Below are positions 3,700 to 63,286 of a DNA stretch of 64,000 bases, piece by piece. The notes under the pieces are model-generated. The model was given only the letters and a program-made list of their open reading frames with translations, did no database searches and was not told where the DNA came from. Source of the DNA: an uncultured delta proteobacterium (GTDB taxonomy: Bacteria; Desulfobacterota; Binatia; UBA9968); NCBI GenBank assembly GCA_963816145.1, contig CAWFJP010000004.1, positions 448,001 through 512,000 of the forward strand, in the 5' to 3' direction. Every line of letters begins with the position of its first letter. Position 1 is the stretch's first letter. A program made the translations under genes and the position numbers.

Positions 3700-3776
3700 G
3701 GTCGCATAGCTCAGTTGGTTAGAGCGCGCGCCTCACATGCGCGAGGTCGTAGGTTCAAGTCCTACTGCGACCACCA
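3700..3776 (+). tRNA. tRNA-Val(CAC)
   Basis: Acceptor stem GGTCGCA/TGCGACC, D-arm GCTC/GAGC, anticodon arm CGCGC-CTCACAT-GCGCG, T-loop TTCAAGT, encoded CCA. Confidence 0.97.
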
Positions 3777-52483: not shown

Positions 52484-52517
52484 TTGCCCCGGACCGGCTC
52501 GAAATCAATGCAACAAT

Positions 52518-52541
52518 TAAGTCAATACGCATGCCTATCCC
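52518..52541. repeat. Copy of the ~25-bp REP-like site
   Basis: TAAGTCAATACGCATGCCT-ATCCC aligns with 59808-59832. Confidence 0.6.
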
Positions 52542-58202: not shown

Positions 58203-58662
58203 ATATGATGGATGGTGTGAAGTGTCAAGCGCACTTGTTAAAGGTCTGTTGAATACGCCGGCGAACATTAGGAAATATGACGAGATGCGGTGACCGAGTG
58301 CGCATGGCGGTGCGAGTCTGGAGCGTGGAATTGAAGTGATGCGACATGGAAAGTCATATCCTAAAAATCCAATGCCGAATCTGAGTTCCGGGCGAAAATA
58401 ATTGCCAGTGGACACAACCATTAGATCCTCGGGCGCGAGGATGTCTAAGAATATCCGGCCGGAAAGGTAACAGGAGATCAGCGGTCGGTGAAGCCAAATG
58501 AGCCCACCCCGAAGCAAGCCGGCGCAATAACCAAGATTTAGCGGCGATGGCAGCATGCTTCCCCAAAGTGTGTGATGGCAAGACCTGTTCCCTTGCTTGG
58601 CCTCGCTGTCGGAGAGCGATATGGCTCGACATTTTCAGGAATTTCTGCTGAATAATCAGAAC

Positions 58663-59754
58663 ATGGAAGAGACAATCTCAGCGATCGACACGATCACGCT
58701 CCGCATTCCGTTGGACATCTGGGCTCCGGCGCCAATGTCTCAAGGTGTGCCGCGCACGCATGTTGAAAGTCTTTATGTGCGCGTGACGACCCGTAGTGGC
58801 CTAGTGGGTTGGGGGGAGTCATTCGGCACAGCCCGTCCCATGGTCGTCGCAGCGATCGACAACTGGATCAGGCGTCTCGCAGTTGGACAGAGCGCCTCGG
58901 ATGAGCAACTCGTGGCACGCATAGAACGCATGTTGCTTTCATTGAGCCGCTCCGGTCCGCTGGCCCACGCGCTCGCGGGACTCGACATTGCGCTGTGGGA
59001 CATCCGGGGGAAGCTTGCGGGCGTGCCGGTGTCGACGCTCCTGGGCGGCGCCAAGCGAACCCGCGTCGAATGTTATGCCTCGTTGCTGCAATATTCCGGC
59101 AACCCAGAATACATCAAGCGCAACACCGCTCGCGCGCTCGAACGCGGTTATCGCCTGATTAAGCTCCATGAGCGCTCCCCCGAGGCGGTCGCTGCTGCGC
59201 GCGAGGTGACCGGTCCGGACATTCCTCTTATGGTGGATACCAACTGCGCTTGGACTTCGGCCGAAGCCGAAGCGGCGGTCGCGGCGATGGCGCCGTACAA
59301 GCCGTTCTGGGTCGAGGAGCCGATCTATCCTCCGGAGGACTTCGAAGCGCTCGCCAAGCTGCGCACGGTCACCGGCGTACCGATGGGGATCGGCGAGAAC
59401 TCAACCAGTCTGCGCGAGTTTCGCCGAATGGTCACCATCGGCAAGGCTGATTACGTTCAGCCCGCCATGGTCAAGCTGGGCATCACCGCCATGGCGAAAG
59501 TAGCGGCCGAGGTCGAGCAGGCGGGCGCCACCTGCGTGCCGAACGCCTTTTATCTGGGACCGGCTTTTCTCGCGGTGTTGCATTGCCTCGCGGCAAAGGA
59601 AAAAGTTTCGCCCCTCGAACGGATGTTTGCCGACTTCGGCGCTACGCCGTTCGCCAAGACCGTACCTATCATCAACGGCGGGGTTGAAGTCCCGCAAAGC
59701 CCAGGGCTCGGCGCGGACCCGGAAGATGAACTGATTGCACGGTTCAGAGTCTAA
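58663..59754 (+). CDS. Mandelate racemase/muconate lactonizing enzyme family protein
   Basis: GWGES; GLDIALWDI.GK; LMVDTN; WVEEP; GEN; PGLG. Confidence 0.92.
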   Translation: MEETISAIDTITLRIPLDIWAPAPMSQGVPRTHVESLYVRVTTRSGLVGWGESFGTARPMVVAAIDNWIRRLAVGQSASDEQLVARIERMLLSLSRSGPLAHALAGLDIALWDIRGKLAGVPVSTLLGGAKRTRVECYASLLQYSGNPEYIKRNTARALERGYRLIKLHERSPEAVAAAREVTGPDIPLMVDTNCAWTSAEAEAAVAAMAPYKPFWVEEPIYPPEDFEALAKLRTVTGVPMGIGENSTSLREFRRMVTIGKADYVQPAMVKLGITAMAKVAAEVEQAGATCVPNAFYLGPAFLAVLHCLAAKEKVSPLERMFADFGATPFAKTVPIINGGVEVPQSPGLGADPEDELIARFRV

Positions 59755-59807
59755 GTCCGCGCTGTCCAAGTACGGTGTGTCTGCTTCAGCGGGCATTATA
59801 ATATGTA

Positions 59808-59832
59808 TAAGTCAAAACTCAGGCTTGATCCC
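59808..59832. repeat. Copy of the ~25-bp REP-like site (empty intron target)
   Basis: TAAGTCAAAACTCAGGCTTGATCCC matches the reconstructed intron insertion site at 21 of 25 positions. Confidence 0.8.
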
Positions 59833-59855
59833 GCTGCTCTGCTCCACCTATGTCG

Positions 59856-60257
59856 CTACGGCAACCTGATGTTTTCTACGGTGATTCCGAGGGATGGAGC
59901 GCGGGATAGCGGGCCATCGGCTGTGAGCAGCGTTGCATTGGCGATACGCGCAGCGGCGACGTAAAAAGCATCGTACGCACTGACGTTGTTCCGGTGTTGC
60001 CATGCAACTCGGAGAAGTGGCAGATGGGGAATCCGATCGACACTCCAATCCATTAGGTCATCGAGCGCGAGTGAGGCGCGGTGGTCAGAAAGCTCGCCGC
60101 GAAGCACCGCGCGTCTTAGTACCGACATCACTTCGACATCCAACAATTCGGGCGCCAGTAGCGTTGCGTCTTCAAGGATGTCGACCAATTTCAGCCCCAA
60201 CGGCGTTCGCAGCAGATATTCCGTAGCCGCCGACGCATCGATGACGTAACGGCTCAC
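59856..60257 (-). CDS. vapC: VapC PIN-domain toxin
   Basis: YVIDASA; APELLDVEV; SAYDAFYVA; LLTAD. Confidence 0.9.
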   Translation of the reverse strand: MSRYVIDASAATEYLLRTPLGLKLVDILEDATLLAPELLDVEVMSVLRRAVLRGELSDHRASLALDDLMDWSVDRIPHLPLLRVAWQHRNNVSAYDAFYVAAARIANATLLTADGPLSRAPSLGITVENIRLP

Positions 60258-60487
60258 GGCAGATCGTTACCGCGCTGCCGGCGTTCCTCCTCAAGCAGCG
60301 CTGCTGCCGAGGTGCCGAGCGTGGTCGCCGGGCGGGTGGAGAAGCGTTTGTGCCATTCCCGGCGCGCCACTTCCCGCTCGATTGCTTCCAAGACGATATC
60401 GCCAAGCGTGCATTCCTGCTGGCGCGCGTATCGGCGCAGCTGGTTATGCAGCTTTTGCGGTATGTTTTTGACTTGAATATTCGCCAT
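60254..60487 (-). CDS. FitA-like ribbon-helix-helix antitoxin
   Basis: MANIQVKNIPQKLHNQLRRYA; overlaps the vapC start. Confidence 0.85.
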   Translation of the reverse strand: MANIQVKNIPQKLHNQLRRYARQQECTLGDIVLEAIEREVARREWHKRFSTRPATTLGTSAAALLEEERRQRGNDLP

Positions 60488-60626
60488 GTCGGAGATTAGC
60501 ATGCCGCGGGCATGCTGGCAATCGCGAGGTGAAATCGGCCAGCGGATGCTAGCGGGTCAACTGGTGGCGATTACGGACCAGCCACTGTTGCGTGGCGCAA
60601 CAGGCGAAAGTTCAGATGGTAAAGGC

Positions 60627-60887
60627 GCGGCAGAAATAGCGGCCCAGGTGGCATCGGGCGCCACTTGCGTGCCGAATACATTTTATATCGGATCGGCTTT
60701 TCTCGCGGTGCTGCACTGCAAGGTGGCAAAGGAAAATGATTCGCCGCTCGAGCGGATGTTCGCCGACTTCGGCGCGACGCCGTTCGCCAAGACCGTTCCA
60801 GTGATCGACGGCGGAATCGAAGTTCCGCAAGCCCTAGGTCTCGGCGCGAACCCGGACGACGACCTGATTACTCGGTTCAGAGTGTAA
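60627..60887 (+). pseudogene. Diverged 3' fragment duplicate of the mandelate racemase-family gene
   Basis: GATCVPNTFYIGSAFLAVLHC...LITRFRV* parallels 59491-59754; homology continues into the downstream DNA. Confidence 0.88.
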
Positions 60888-60945
60888 GTCCGCTCTGTCC
60901 AAGCACAGCGCCTCCGCTTCCGCGGCCATCGTAATGTGAATAAAT

Positions 60946-62978
60946 GTAGGGTCGAGGACTGGCGCGGTATCTCGTAGGTGAAACCTATCTGTTACCGTCT
61001 CTTTCGTCTGACGGTGCCTCACTAGCTCCACCGTAAACCCGTTTCCAGCCCCCGCCACCTCAAACCGGACGTGACCCTTTCGGTCATCCGGCTTTCCTGC
61101 GTCTGTTCGTCGGCGGCGCTATCTGCCTAGCGCGCTGGAGACACTTTCACCGGCGATCGATAGAAGTACTGGACACGATAATCGTCAACCAGTCCCCATT
61201 CTTTGTAGATCGCCTCGTTACTCCATCTCTTCCAGCCACAGCCAGGGCGGCCTTTCTGTTTCATTGCAAACCGGCGTATCTGCCTCATGATCGCAAAGCG
61301 TATCCAATCAAACGCCCGGCGCGAGTTGCCCACTCGGAAGTAGTGCACCCAGCCCACTATCACAGGCCGGATCTTTTCCAGGACTTCCTTGGTTGAACAA
61401 TGCCGGGAGTATTTCAAGATGTGTCTGACTCGCTTGAGCAGCTCACTCTGCTTCTTTGTCTTCGGGGTCCGCAACACGAACCGCTTGCCGAACCGATTGT
61501 GCGCCGCTCTGAAATCAAATCCCAGAAAACCAAAGCTCGCGCCGCTACCGAAGTCCACCACCTTGGTCTTTTCTTCGTTGATCTCAATCGCCACTTTCTT
61601 CAGCTCTTGGTCCAACCGCTTCTGGATCATCCCCACGTGCGGTTGCCATTGCGGATAACCATCGACCAAAATCACCATGTCATCCGCATAGCGGGTGTAC
61701 ACCACCCGTTCCCATCGCCCTTCTCTTCGCCGCTTGGCCGTTTCTTCTTCCATCGCTTGGTCCAATTCGTTTAAATACAAATTGGCCAATAGCGGTGATA
61801 GCACTCCCCCTTGCGGAACTCCTTTGGCTCCGTTGACCTTCAGGATCTGCTTGACCAGATGAAGGATTTGGGGGTCTTGCACTCTGCGAGCTAGCTTCTG
61901 AAGTAGAAGATGATGGCGAACGTTGTCGAAATAGCTCTTGAGATCAACGTCGAGGACTCGGCTGAGCCCTTGCACCAGCCCGTGAACCACGCGATCGAGC
62001 GCTTGGTGCGCTGTCCGTTTGGGCCGGTACGCAAAAGAACTGGTGTGAAAATCAGCTTCAAAGATCGCCTCCAAGATCAGCTTCACGGCTCCCTGGACCA
62101 CTCGATCTTTGATGGTGGGTATTCCCAACCGGCGCGTCTTGCCATTCCCTTTGGGAATTTCCGCCCGCCGATTCTTGCTCGGCTTGTAACTGCGTGTGAG
62201 AAGTTCTTCGCGTATGGCGCTTAGGAACTTCTCCACGCCGCGGGCCTCGATCAACGCAAAACTTTCCCCATCGATCCCCACCGTCCCATCATTCGCTTTG
62301 GCTTGCTGATACGCCGCTCTTAAGGTCTCCATCTTGATCACGTGAACGTAGAGACCCCAAAACCGCCACTGCTTCTCGGCTTTCGCCTTTCGATATATCC
62401 TTCGCCTCAGTTCTTGCAGATTAACGGAAGACTTTATCATCTCTTCCCTGCCTCACCTTGCGGTCGAAAGAATCAAACCCAGCATGGCCCCTTCGCTCCA
62501 TCCGCATTACCAGACTTCACCGCTACTACGGGCCACTCCGCCATCCTGCTGCCTTCGTCCCCTTTCCTGTCTCCAGTTATAGGGCCGACCTGCTCCGCAG
62601 ATTTCTCCACGGGGCATACAGGACTTCTCCAGTTTCTGTCGTGCCCTTGTGACCGTGTCGCCGCCAATACCCCGCCGGTGTGGAACTATCCCCTATGCCA
62701 GTCTGACATAGCCCATGCTGTCTTCGCCGAATTTTGAGCGGCTCGACCACCGAAAACTAACCCATCCTTAACGAGGCTTGCTCAGCGTTTACTCACGTTG
62801 CAACCCGGTCACTCGCTCATCAGCCCGAAGCTGACTTTGTCGGTAGGCTCCAGCATCTCGATTGCTCTCCATGCTGCTACCCAAGCTAGGCGGCTCCTGG
62901 CTCTTACCGCCGCGGGACTTCCCTCACCTAACTGACAGTTCACCCTATGGTCCACGACAGCTTTTCATCTGGACACGC
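60946..62978 (-). mobile_element. Complete group II intron (IIB-like, AGC triad, long domain VI)
   Basis: Domain V AAGCCGGATGACCGAAAGGGTCACGTCCGGTTT (~61062-61094); 3' end ...CCTCGACCCTAC; 5' end GCGTGTCCAG; both boundaries fixed by alignment to the empty homolog at 59808. Confidence 0.92.
61127..62440 (-). CDS. ltrA: Group II intron reverse transcriptase/maturase (no endonuclease domain)
   Basis: GIDG; IPKGNGKTRRLGIPTIKDRVVQ; GVPQGGVLSPLLANLYL; RYADD; FLGFDF; GWVHYF thumb/X domain; 437 aa. Confidence 0.95.
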   Translation of the reverse strand: MIKSSVNLQELRRRIYRKAKAEKQWRFWGLYVHVIKMETLRAAYQQAKANDGTVGIDGESFALIEARGVEKFLSAIREELLTRSYKPSKNRRAEIPKGNGKTRRLGIPTIKDRVVQGAVKLILEAIFEADFHTSSFAYRPKRTAHQALDRVVHGLVQGLSRVLDVDLKSYFDNVRHHLLLQKLARRVQDPQILHLVKQILKVNGAKGVPQGGVLSPLLANLYLNELDQAMEEETAKRRREGRWERVVYTRYADDMVILVDGYPQWQPHVGMIQKRLDQELKKVAIEINEEKTKVVDFGSGASFGFLGFDFRAAHNRFGKRFVLRTPKTKKQSELLKRVRHILKYSRHCSTKEVLEKIRPVIVGWVHYFRVGNSRRAFDWIRFAIMRQIRRFAMKQKGRPGCGWKRWSNEAIYKEWGLVDDYRVQYFYRSPVKVSPAR

Positions 62979-63286
62979 CAATACTCAGGCCTGACCCCGC
63001 TGTTTGCCGCTGCTTGACCCCCCTCTTGGGCTGTTCGGTCATGCGATCGCGGGGACATCGATAAAGAATCTCTCGAAGTAGGGTTTGCACTTCAAAGGTT
63101 CCAACGATTTGGCTGGTGAGCCACGGTTCAGACAAGAGAAGACTTCCGACCGCGTTTCTGGGCTCGTGACGAGTGTCTCGGTCATAAGTAAGGATGCGAC
63201 CGTTGTTTGCTCTCGAAAGTCGGATTATAAAAATATGCCGCCGTTTCCGAGCTGAGAGTCTAACCCCGGCTCATGCTTTGTGAGCC

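Follow-up and report, generated by a model that had tools for sequence, protein, structure and literature searches.

A group II intron lineage probably specialised on the terminal inverted repeats of TIRtrons in uncultivated bacteria

The DNA analysed here (the window), a stretch of 64,000 nucleotides from an uncultured delta proteobacterium of the Binatia, carries on its minus strand an element that, as judged from its sequence, is a mobile IIB-type group II intron devoid of an endonuclease domain, splitting a short repeat placed next to a truncated fragment of a mandelate racemase-like gene (Table 1). Rfam group-II-D1D4-4 (RF02003) matched the 5′ ribozyme part at 62793-62930(-) with 115.2 bits (gathering score 49), and this part was 83-88% identical to its relatives over ~560 nt. 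The intact reading frame within the intron encoded a protein of 437 aa with RVT_1 (2.8e-34) and GIIM (6.2e-11) domains, which reached 358 bits against TIGR04416 (cut-off 300) and presented YADD in its translation. The domain V-VI model (RF00029) scored 38.4 bits, just below its gathering score of 40, with a match stopping exactly at 60946; the stretch 60946-61100, covering both domains, had a predicted fold of -67.8 kcal/mol (z = -4.97), and ~60 nt of the domain VI region were missing from two relatives (L017 and L020). The AGC triad of domain V, already pointed out in the earlier note on this DNA, was recovered, and such a triad argues against class IIC. The closest named records, from Bradyrhizobium, Bacillus, Wolbachia and Myxococcales, were ~50% identical. 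Group g2 of PMC3552965 includes introns from Wolbachia, Myxococcus, Sorangium and Bacillus, and it is offered purely as a lead to the placement of the window intron among the endonuclease-less IIB-type classes (D, E, F and g1-g4).

Table 1. Features of the intron locus and of related sites in the window
Feature	Position	Strand	Basis or remark
TIR-like copy, weak and degenerate (TAAGTCAATACGCATGC...)	52516..52541	(+)	nhmmer E = 0.67
Paralogous stretch A: 3′ end of MR_MLE gene (58597-59754), spacer, TIR	59498..59836	(+)	alignment, Pfam
Uninterrupted TIR (ATAAGTCAAAACTCAGGCTTGATCCCGC), paralogue of the occupied TIR	59807..59834	(+)	nhmmer E = 1.1e-4; alignment
Paralogous stretch B: truncated MR_MLE C-terminal fragment (ORF 60486-60887), spacer, inner TIR	60634..60945	(+)	alignment, Pfam
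Occupied TIR, inner part (AATAAAT)	60939..60945	(+)	3′ exon in intron sense
Group II intron, 2033 nt	60946..62978	(-)	Rfam matches, relatives' alignment, exact metagenome skip
Domain VI region, unusually long (~114 nt), and 3′ end	60946..61059	(-)	fold, relatives
Domain V (AAGCCGGAUGACCGAAAGGGUCACGUCCGGUUU), AGC triad	61062..61094	(-)	domain V-VI model and fold
Reverse transcriptase/maturase ORF, 437 aa, without endonuclease domain	61127..62440	(-)	RVT_1, GIIM, TIGR04416
5′ ribozyme part (domains I-III and start of IV)	62441..62978	(-)	group-II-D1D4-4, relatives' identity
EBS1 hairpin GCCG-CUCAAAAUU-CGGC; EBS1 = loop positions 3-9 (62730-62736)	62726..62742	(-)	stem and loop covariation
Candidate EBS2 segment (UAAGGAUGGG)	62761..62770	(-)	directly 3′ of invariant GAGCAAGCCUCGU; matched pairs in relatives
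Occupied TIR, outer part (CAATACTCAGGCCTGACCCCGCTG)	62979..63002	(+)	5′ exon in intron sense

The window copy starts with GCGUG and ends with CCUAC, so that against the consensus borders GUGYG / AY it shows a C at intron position 2 on the 5′ side and ...CUAC on the 3′ side. Among the 25 other junctions, the start was GUGUG in 23 and GUGCG in L117, with L127b offset by 2 nt, and the alignment of the relatives spanned intron position 3 to position 2033. In a soil metagenome run (X1, labelled 'DNA?'), a 401-nt contig joined 60945 to 62979, skipping exactly 2033 nt, with 0 differences in 289 nt on one side and 2 in 101 nt on the other. This exact skip confirmed the intron boundary despite the GCGUG start and revealed that an intron-free form of the window locus exists.

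Removal of the intron rejoined TAAAT to CAATACTCAGGCCTGACCCC, and 21 of the 25 positions of the restored site agreed with TAAGTCAAAACTCAGGCTTGATCCC at 59808, as had been described before; a 19-nt core (≤3 mismatches) was present twice in the window versus 0.06 times expected (100 shuffles). This match was embedded in a longer duplication, since 59498-59836 (339 nt) shared 81% identity with 60634-60945 taken together with 62979-63002, the duplicated segment running from the 3′ end of the mandelate racemase-like gene across a 53-nt spacer to the repeat, and stopping 4 nt past the outer end of the latter. The two window sites are therefore paralogues and not independent repeat copies, and they provide no independent support for repeat targeting inside the window itself. 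The empty target previously seen next to the intron is an uninterrupted site and a paralogous duplicate, and no read evidence was found for an intron at 59812; the further copy proposed at 52518 was TIR-like, but only as a weak match. The duplication would suit an explanation in which the flank likeness arose by local gene duplication alone and the intron occupies an ordinary, unique site. Such a coincidence is hardly credible, being contradicted by the ~20 copies of the motif in unrelated flanks of the genome, by its presence on both sides of TIR-associated transposase (TIRYT) genes and by its position as the 5′ exon at 26/26 junctions of the lineage.

The split flank belongs to a dispersed motif of ~28 nt, aATAAGT/CAATACTCAGGCctGaCCCc, found in 19-23 copies in the window genome. 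A 24-mer (≤6 mismatches) had 23 matches genome-wide versus 2-6 in each of five shuffles, nhmmer returned 23 matches with E≤1, 19 of them with E<0.1, in unrelated flanks, and a 17-mer (≤2 mismatches) had 19 copies versus 0 for its reversed control. Of 18 further genomes from the genus, 13 also contained the 17-mer. The window genome has a single copy of the intron, though ~20 TIR copies occur there. This motif, earlier described as REP-like, is a repeat of low copy number (~20 per genome) and free of a hairpin: none was consistent among 19 copies (mean z = -0.7 and -0.2), and neither compensatory changes between copies nor a GTAG tag was observed. Lacking a hairpin, the repeat is not a REP, and a palindromic REP was rejected on these three grounds.

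The repeat instead resembles the ends of TIRtrons, small units that encode RAYT-like, TIR-associated Y1 tyrosine transposases (TIRYTs), described in the text of Di Nocera et al. (2013, PMC3733652) and assigned to subclass 2.1 in that of Quentin et al. (2018, PMC6006769), with a published TIR consensus of GGGGWSAS. In the window genome the TIR starts with GGGGTCAG, which fits this consensus; in the intron 5′ exons, the consensus was exact in 1 of 26 and present with ≤1 mismatch in 13 of 26. The gene G000:C29:1541-2473, placed between inverted copies of the motif, encodes a 310-aa protein with a Y1_Tnp domain (2.7e-16) and a Bac_DnaA_C match just below the Pfam cut-off (30.7 bits, E = 3.2e-7; cut-off 31.5), and scored 65.8 bits against NCBIfam REP_Tyr_transpos, below the cut-off of 80. 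As in the TIRYTs of the published text, the Y1_Tnp protein presents an HUH motif (HVH) and a catalytic-type tyrosine, with a putative C-terminal DnaA-like helix-turn-helix in addition, and its gene lies between hairpin-free inverted repeats beginning GGGGWSAS; as in the TIRtrons described there, the TIRs also form a moderately abundant dispersed family of single copies and dimers. Full-length homologues (72-90% identity) from five other genomes of the genus were flanked by inverted motif copies in 8/8 cases, which upheld the suspected link to RAYT-type Y1 transposases. By these comparisons, the dispersed repeat is the TIR of a TIRtron/TIRYT unit. Among 18 loci of TIRYT paralogues from five other genomes, 12 carried inverted GGGTCAG-type core repeats with variant inner parts, the TIR of L143 being an exception among them that reads GTGTCAGGC. 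Several of these paralogue variants match intron 5′ exons; for example, the G071 TIR GGGGTCAGGTCTTGAATCTTG matches the exon of L085, whose EBS1 is CAAGAUU. Tandem arrays of TIRtrons were also observed in G014:C8.

Across the bacterial family, 26 distinct 5′ junctions of the intron lineage were found, and by eye all 26 were TIR-like. The sequence GGGTCAGGC (≤2 mismatches) was present at about -26..-8 in 21/26 junctions, compared with 1.4% of 20000 random genome positions, so that the homologues were not in unrelated flanks, the outcome that the earlier note had set against its own proposal. The orientation of the intron in the TIR was constant, between ...GTATTG and ACTTAT... when read from the outer GGGG end to the inside. 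No earlier report of an intron lineage homing into TIRs was found in the literature searched; the word 'intron' occurs 0 times in the main text of PMC3733652, and in that of PMC6006769 it is used only for an IStron.

In two genomes the intron was located within complete TIRtron boundaries. In G065:C140 it spans 415-2447, with the TIRYT start codon 35 nt further on and the downstream TIR uninterrupted, and in G055:C64 the TIR overlapping the stop codon of the TIRYT gene is occupied by an ORF-less intron, the upstream TIR being uninterrupted. These arrangements, together with the 339-nt duplicated segment holding both window TIRs and the tandem arrays in G014:C8, would be compatible with the entry of the intron into one or a few TIRs, followed by its passive copying through transposition or duplication of TIRtrons or TIR segments, with no homing involved. 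Passive copying is nevertheless very unlikely, because the sequence beyond the TIR was different at all 26 junctions, most occupied TIRs were solo copies, the window locus is known without the intron (run X1), and EBS1 varies by copy and fits the local TIR variant, which passive copying would not lead one to expect. It is probable that this mobile, endonuclease-less IIB-type intron belongs to a lineage specialised on the ~28-nt TIRs of TIRtrons and on solo TIRs.

Exon positions -7..-1 vary among the junctions and covary with the EBS1 loop. The hairpin GCCG-CTCAAAATT-CGGC followed by GAAGAC, which the earlier note had singled out, was found on the minus strand, and its loop CAAAAUU indeed fits the AGUUUUG found at 59808, where one pair is G-U, whereas the AGUAUUG next to the intron brings an additional mismatch (A-A). 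The window copy forms 6/7 pairs with its own exon, and the IBS1 of the empty TIR is a perfect complement of its EBS1. The EBS1 stem covaries between copies (GCCG/CGGC versus GCCA/UGGC). In 18 readable copies, EBS1 paired with its own exon -1..-7 at a mean of 5.39/7 and with the exons of other copies at 3.61/7, and the observed pairing was reached by 0/5000 permutations, a figure that overstates independence since the copies are kin within one bacterial family. Matched pairs of EBS1 and IBS1 include CAAUAC:GUAUUG, CUAAAAG:CUUUUGG, GGUUGU:GCAACU, AGUAAUU:AAUUAUU and CAAGAUU:AGUCUUG, and the fit was poor in 4 of the 18 copies (L115, 2/7; L116, 1/7; L088, 3/7; L084, 5/7, two by G-U, judged poor on inspection). 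By this covariation, 62730-62736 behaves as EBS1, as predicted. These data demonstrate, at the level of sequence comparison, that the 9-nt EBS1 loop pairs with IBS1, the variable inner stretch of the TIR at -1..-7, that different EBS1 sub-lineages occupy correspondingly different TIR variants and that these variants in turn serve distinct TIRYT paralogues as their TIRs.

An EBS2 had been reported as missing. In the window copy the candidate segment was complementary to neither window site and matched its own exon poorly, but relatives presented plausible EBS2 pairs, such as AAUGUC:GACAUU (L091), AAAGCC:GGCUUU (L087, L094) and AAGAC:GUCUU (L085), with weak statistics (own mean 4.56 versus 4.16 for non-own exons; the observed value reached by 293/5000 permutations). 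Judged by the C at position 2, the single mismatch in its EBS1 pairing and the poor fit of its EBS2, the window copy looks slightly off-target.

A second pairing through EBS2, commonly AAAGCC, may grip the GGCUUU that is conserved in the TIR core, and such a hold would account for the lineage keeping to TIRs while EBS1 drifts. For insertion, the intron would reverse-splice into the TIR strand and, by analogy with other endonuclease-less introns, be reverse-transcribed from a primer supplied by the replication fork. TIRs might be preferred as landing sites because they are non-coding, occur in many copies and travel on a mobile unit. The lack of an endonuclease domain could also be read as reliance on the Y1 transposase, which would expose or nick single-stranded TIR DNA for access or primer, the conserved GGGGTCAG then serving the transposase and not the intron RNA. 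The conserved distal exon -20..-15, outside every proposed EBS pairing, and the action of IS200/IS605 Y1 transposases on single-stranded DNA, as stated in the text of PMC6006769, speak for such assistance. It is highly improbable all the same: TIR function alone explains the conserved core equally well, the proposed outer-end cleavage would fall on the 5′-exon side, the wrong place for a cDNA primer, and TIR orientation showed no bias relative to local GC skew (8 versus 11 of 19 copies). It is likewise unlikely that intron and transposase form a functionally coupled two-component system, in which TIRYT gives single-stranded DNA or primer and TIRtrons carry the intron between genomes. If such coupling is true, an RNA-guided retroelement would be co-diversifying with families of HUH-transposase ends. 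Help of an HUH transposase in retrohoming becomes a directly testable question.

Among the known systems, IIC introns, which use attC sites or terminators (text of PMC4424553), also lack an endonuclease domain and land on a recurring non-coding motif that is present in many copies and belongs to another recombination system. The window intron differs from them in its group-II-D1D4-4 match, AGC triad and normal 7-nt EBS1-IBS1 pairing, and in a hairpin-free target apparently recognised by sequence pairing and not as a stem-loop. Class C was accordingly rejected, with no consistent hairpin in the 5′-exon TIR and D1D4-4 as the best Rfam match. RmInt1 and related class D introns reportedly home into ISRm2011-2-type insertion sequences in Sinorhizobium. 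Similarly to the window lineage, RmInt1 is an endonuclease-less IIB-type intron with another mobile element as its natural home, and its relatives fit their EBS sequences to related targets. Its target is said to lie inside the insertion sequence, whereas here the intron enters a non-coding terminal repeat of 28 nt, which is found as solo copies too, and many TIR variants are tracked in one bacterial family. Mobile elements that insert at Y1-transposase-associated repeats are also known, since the text of Tobes & Pareja (2006, PMC1525189) reports insertion sequences targeting REP elements and a group II intron of Pseudomonas putida KT2440, of which 2/9 copies (22%) are associated with REPs. 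That association is partial and concerns palindromic REPs, in contrast to the 26/26 TIR-like junctions and the RNA-target covariation observed here.

Specific homing sites, terminators and attC sites are the target strategies of bacterial group II introns given in the text of the review PMC4424553. The present lineage would add a fourth flavour, in which the target is the terminal repeat of an element with a Y1 transposase, short, hairpin-free and present in many copies, and is recognised through ordinary EBS-IBS pairing across many repeat variants. Its natural series of matched EBS1/target pairs offers material on intron retargeting. The lineage also connects TIRtrons with endonuclease-less introns, both of them poorly studied, in soil bacteria that are uncultivated. 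Homing into TIRs would also account for the intron fragments and ORF-less mini-introns that lie beside 'IS200-like transposase' genes in the annotation of these genomes.

The intron of the window, which splits one copy of a ~28-nt dispersed repeat (TIR), was recognized as a group II intron by converging criteria (table). Its ORF carried RVT_1 and GIIM but no endonuclease domain in a domain search, preserved an intact frame and the YADD motif, and, with 358 bits, exceeded the 300-bit cut-off of the NCBI group II RT/maturase model. The predicted fold from domain V to the 3′ end was strong (z = –4.97), and the domain VI region was unusually long (~114 nt) and included an extra hairpin; ~60 nt of this region were missing from relatives L017 and L020. 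The alignment of relatives spanned intron positions 3 to 2033, and the domain V-VI match of a permissive scan ended exactly at the last intron nucleotide. All junctions examined, including that of the window, ended in CCUAC, and the 5′ start was GUGUG in 23 of the 25 other junctions, the exceptions being L117, with GUGCG, and L127b, which is shifted by 2 nt. In the window copy, the start is GCGUG, i.e., with a C at intron position 2 (62977); this base was covered by contigs of three public sequencing runs and does not figure among the differences listed. The intron occurs once in its own 7.8-Mb genome (G000). As to class, the review by Zimmerly and Semper (PMC4424553), in its passages on intron classes, describes classes C, D, E, and F as devoid of endonuclease, and relatives with ~50% RT identity share hosts with group g2 in passages of Toro and Martinez-Abarca 2013 (PMC3552965), which is a class lead only.

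Features of the window and of the dispersed repeat
Feature	Position	Strand	Basis or sequence
Group II intron	60946-62978	-	Rfam, ORF, relatives' alignment, contig skip
Group-II-D1D4-4 match	62793-62930		115 bits, cut-off 49 (Rfam)
Domain V-VI model match	60946-61096		38.4 bits, cut-off 40 (permissive Rfam scan)
Domain V	61062-61094	-	AAGCCGGAUGACCGAAAGGGUCACGUCCGGUUU
Domain VI region	60946-61059	-	
Intron ORF	61127-62440		437 aa
EBS1 hairpin	62726-62742		GCCG-CUCAAAAUU-CGGC, then GAAGAC
TIR core			GGGGTCAGGC
Uninterrupted TIR copy (59808 site)	59807-59834		
Mandelate-racemase-like gene (MR_MLE)	58597-59754		
Duplication, first copy	59498-59836		
Duplication, second copy	60634-60945 plus 62979-63002		
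PIN-domain (VapC-like) ORF	59856-60257	-	PF01850, 1.8e-10
82-aa ORF	60254-60502	-	no Pfam match
tRNA gene	3700-3773	+	Rfam, 73.5 bits

The borders were independently proven by a 401-nt contig from run X1, a soil metagenome labelled 'DNA?', which joined 60945 straight to 62979 and skipped exactly 2033 nt; its 289-nt arm was identical to the window, and its 101-nt arm differed at 2 positions. Therefore, the locus also exists without the intron, although in case X1 holds RNA the contig would represent ligated exons. Contigs of the RNA run X18 covered small parts of the window only, with no joint among them.

The repeat NEVERTHELESS is a genuine dispersed element. A 24-mer of one copy, with up to 6 mismatches, had 23 matches in the genome against 2-6 for each of five shuffled versions, and an iterated nhmmer profile revealed 23 copies at E≤1 in G000, 19 of them with E<0.1. 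Its consensus was aAtAAgTCAATACTCAGGCctGaCCCc, and the similarity among copies ended at both borders. When up to 2 mismatches were allowed, the 17-nt core occurred 19 times in G000 (0 for a reversed control); of 18 further genomes from the genus, 13 carried it at 1-20 copies each, the unpublished G005 among them. Copies were clustered in a few regions, some of them as inverted pairs. The earlier note had considered the repeat REP-like. However, when both strands of 19 copies were folded as DNA, no shared hairpin emerged (mean z = –0.7 and –0.2 relative to mononucleotide shuffles), and no compensatory changes were found between copies, so that a REP identity was rejected. Other candidate properties were also discarded: a replication-strand bias of TIR orientation (8/19 on the G-rich and 11/19 on the C-rich strand), paralogy of two 655-aa ORFs adjoining two copies (tblastn returned the self match only), and a promoter role for TTGACT in the motif (by eye, wrong spacing to a –10-like box at the 59808 site). 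In 16 of the 23 copies, a mechanically called ORF on the same strand, 90 aa or longer, ended within 150 nt upstream, a count made without control and including some ORFs that overlap on opposite strands, and taken as a weak hint only. Inverted doublets with starts 65 nt apart and nothing in between were observed at G000:C4:582987-583084, outside the window, and at G004:C4:13115-13196, and are REPIN-like.

The association of the repeat with RAYT-type Y1 transposases, proposed in the earlier note, proved correct in substance. In their description of 'TIRtrons', Di Nocera et al. 2013 (PMC3733652) reported RAYT-like genes ('TIRYTs') placed between hairpin-free inverted repeats that share a GGGGWSAS motif and whose dispersed families occur as single copies, dimers, or groups, and Quentin et al. 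2018 (PMC6006769) treated this arrangement as equivalent to their subclass 2.1, with Bac_DnaA_C or other helix-turn-helix C-termini. The GGGGTCAG of the present repeat matches GGGGWSAS. Moreover, between the two members of an inverted pair in G000:C29, at 1486(-) and 2472(+), lies an ORF of 310 aa that contains GRY and an HVH motif. This ORF matched Y1_Tnp (IS200-like, 2.7e-16) and showed a weak match to the DnaA C-terminal helix-turn-helix (30.7 bits, cut-off 31.5); its best NCBIfam match was the REP-associated tyrosine transposase model (65.8 bits, below the cut-off of 80). The same inverted TIRs bracketed all eight full-length homologues (72-90% identity), from loci of five other genomes of the genus: the start codon came ~30-45 nt after one TIR, the stop codon was overlapped by the second, and the cross-genome similarity of these loci stopped directly after ...CTGACCCC. 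Immediately beyond the left TIR of this intact G000 TIRtron, G000:C29:1263-1473 contains another TIR-like copy, which is degenerate, along with a 5′ TIRYT fragment of 55 codons (96% identity), and a C-terminal TIRYT remnant adjoins another TIR copy at C31:194068-194206. Three full TIRtrons and two partial TIRYT copies, each bounded by inverted TIRs, lie within 10 kb at L132 (G014:C8:235400-245400), which suggests that the TIRtron multiplies locally.

Inside the window, the rejoined intron flanks matched the 59808 site at 21/25 positions, as had been noticed from the sequence. The uninterrupted match is thus present, but the supposed empty target next door is a paralogue within the window, since those 25 nt are the tail of a 339-nt duplication with 81% identity in which the last ~250 nt of the mandelate-racemase-like gene are followed by a 53-nt spacer and then by the repeat; in the second copy, the gene is present as a truncated fragment. 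The duplicated stretch stops 4 nt past the outer TIR end, so that its breakpoint coincides with a transposon-end repeat and the duplication may be a TIR-bounded rearrangement. In the interval that separates the complete gene and its TIR from the truncated paralogue, the PIN-domain ORF and the 82-aa ORF upstream of it, overlapping by 4 nt, likely form a toxin-antitoxin pair. The intron had also been looked for at 59812/59813: no such joint was seen in the contigs of four runs, which tell presence and not absence, and one X1 contig was continuous over 59600-60521.

The siting in TIR-like sequence extended across the lineage. The 5′ exons of the five closest RT homologues (78-86% identity, species-representative genomes) all read ...GGGTCAGGC..GTATTG up to the junction. 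An intron DNA search in 123 genomes of the order retrieved complete as well as fragmentary copies and also several mini-introns lacking the ORF; most of these hits came from other genera of the same family. From 30 rows of 5′ junctions, the window included, 26 were retained after removing L003, L004, and L007 (same records under two ids) and L107 (not a junction). The sequence outside the repeat differed at all 26, and GGGTCAGGC, with up to 2 mismatches, lay between –26 and –8 in 21 of them, against 1.4% of 20000 random positions, so that the homologous introns do not sit in unrelated flanks; the same kind of exon was recognizable by eye in L111, L115, L118, L120, and L121. The 3′ exons were A/T-rich (ACTTATT, ATTTATT, ACCTATT...) and resembled the inner TIR end. 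Mini-introns, in which ~610 nt of 5′ sequence are joined to ~183-310 nt of 3′ sequence, were common in the family (G055:C64, G074:C309, G071:C6, G114:C6, G027:C434, G061:C361, G056:C14, and G054:C403), and those with junctions examined were sited in TIRs as well.

The exon-pairing segments followed these targets. The hairpin reported in the earlier note was found in place, and EBS1 was taken as positions 3-9 of its 9-nt loop, with IBS1 as exon positions –1 to –7, which vary between copies. In the 18 copies with both anchors identified, the expected co-variation was recovered: EBS1 paired at a mean of 5.39/7 positions with its own exon and 3.61/7 with the exons of other copies. The own-exon mean was reached by 0/5000 permutations, a figure that overstates independence because the copies are relatives. 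EBS1:exon pairs included CAAUAC:GUAUUG (L086, L087), CUAAAAG:CUUUUGG (L117), GGUUGU:GCAACU (L119), AGUAAUU:AAUUAUU (L091), and CAAGAUU:AGUCUUG (L085); L084 paired at 5/7, two of them G-U, and L115 (2/7), L116 (1/7), and L088 (3/7) were misfits. In agreement with the original reading, the window EBS1 can pair fully with the GUUUUG variant, one of the pairs being G-U; this variant is present at the 59808 site and in a few TIR copies in other genomes of the genus; with its own exon it has one A-A mismatch.

The invariant AAGCCU in GAGCAAGCCUCGU was discarded as EBS2, since it remains constant while exons vary. The variable segment just 3′ of GAGCAAGCCUCGU looks like a candidate EBS2, with potential pairs AAUGUC:GACAUU, AAAGCC:GGCUUU, and AAGAC:GUCUU at about –14 to –8, and weak statistics (4.56 own vs 4.16 other; 293/5000 permutations reached the observed value). 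In the window copy this segment has a 7-nt insertion, common to L083, and does not match the exon, so the earlier note, which found no EBS2, is fair as regards this copy. Taken together, the C at position 2, the A-A mismatch, and the poor EBS2 suggest that the window copy is an imperfect fit. The commonest candidate, AAAGCC, would pair with the conserved GGCUUU in the core of the TIR, and the lineage could for this reason stay on TIRs while EBS1 changes.

The intron and the TIRtron also meet at the same loci. Five other genomes of the family had 2-18 TIRYT protein matches each, and 12 of 18 TIRYT loci presented inverted repeats with a GGGTCAG-type core and a different inner part (core of L143, GTGTCAGGC); in two of the remaining six, one TIR was split by the intron. 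In G065:C140, a TIRYT gene (311 aa) starts 35 nt after the intron (415-2447), and its downstream TIR is uninterrupted (GGCTTTCGTATTG/CATTAT, the slash marking the junction position). In G055:C64, an ORF-less intron lies inside the TIR overlapping the TIRYT stop codon, so that the frame terminates within the intron's last bases, and the upstream TIR is intact. Several TIRYT-flanking TIR variants were identical to intron 5′ exons: GGGGTCAGACATTTAATTATT/TA in G055 (exons of L091 and L114), GGGGTCAAATCTTTACCTTTG/A in G074 (L111), and GGGGTCAGGTCTTGAATCTTG/C in G071:C1 (L085, on the same contig), the L085 EBS1 being the full complement of AAUCUUG there. A contig of run X2 extended just 20 nt beyond the intron 5′ junction, entirely within TIR sequence, and is therefore not locus-specific and cannot be assigned to the occupied allele of the window; in the same run, the unaligned letters beside the intron 3′ end resemble the TIRYT leader of G000, which supports a probable intron-beside-TIRYT arrangement in an environmental sample too. 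Upstream of the TIRYT gene of L150 (G109:C68), an intron 5′-region fragment, GTCGTGATCCATAGGGTGACTCTCAGG, abuts the outer TIR end, and this TIRtron may have inserted into or beside an intron copy.

Group II introns are well known to home into other mobile elements, as RmInt1 does in ISRm2011-2. Three target specificities of bacterial introns, namely homing sites, terminators, and attC, are distinguished in passages of Zimmerly and Semper (PMC4424553). REP-targeting insertion sequences have been documented, and a P. putida group II intron had only 2/9 copies associated with REPs (PMC1525189). In the literature searched, no report was found of a group II intron lineage specialized on TIRYT/RAYT-associated repeats, and passages of PMC3733652 and PMC6006769 mention no group II introns in TIRs. 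On this basis, we rate the proposed RNA-guided homing itself as ordinary and as apparently new the use of a short multi-copy transposon-end repeat as the target, with an EBS1 that appears to track repeat variants across the lineage.

More distant relatives (~50% RT identity, other phyla) presented no TIR-like exons. By eye, 16 of 39 of them (L009, L013, L018, L020, L021, L029, L030, L033-L037, L039, L041, L048, and L049), from Rickettsia, Spirochaetia, Myxococcales, and other hosts, were placed directly 3′ of a DV-like hairpin, GAGCCGUAUG...ACGGUU/GUGYG, which suggests that these relatives home into the DV/DVI junction of other introns.
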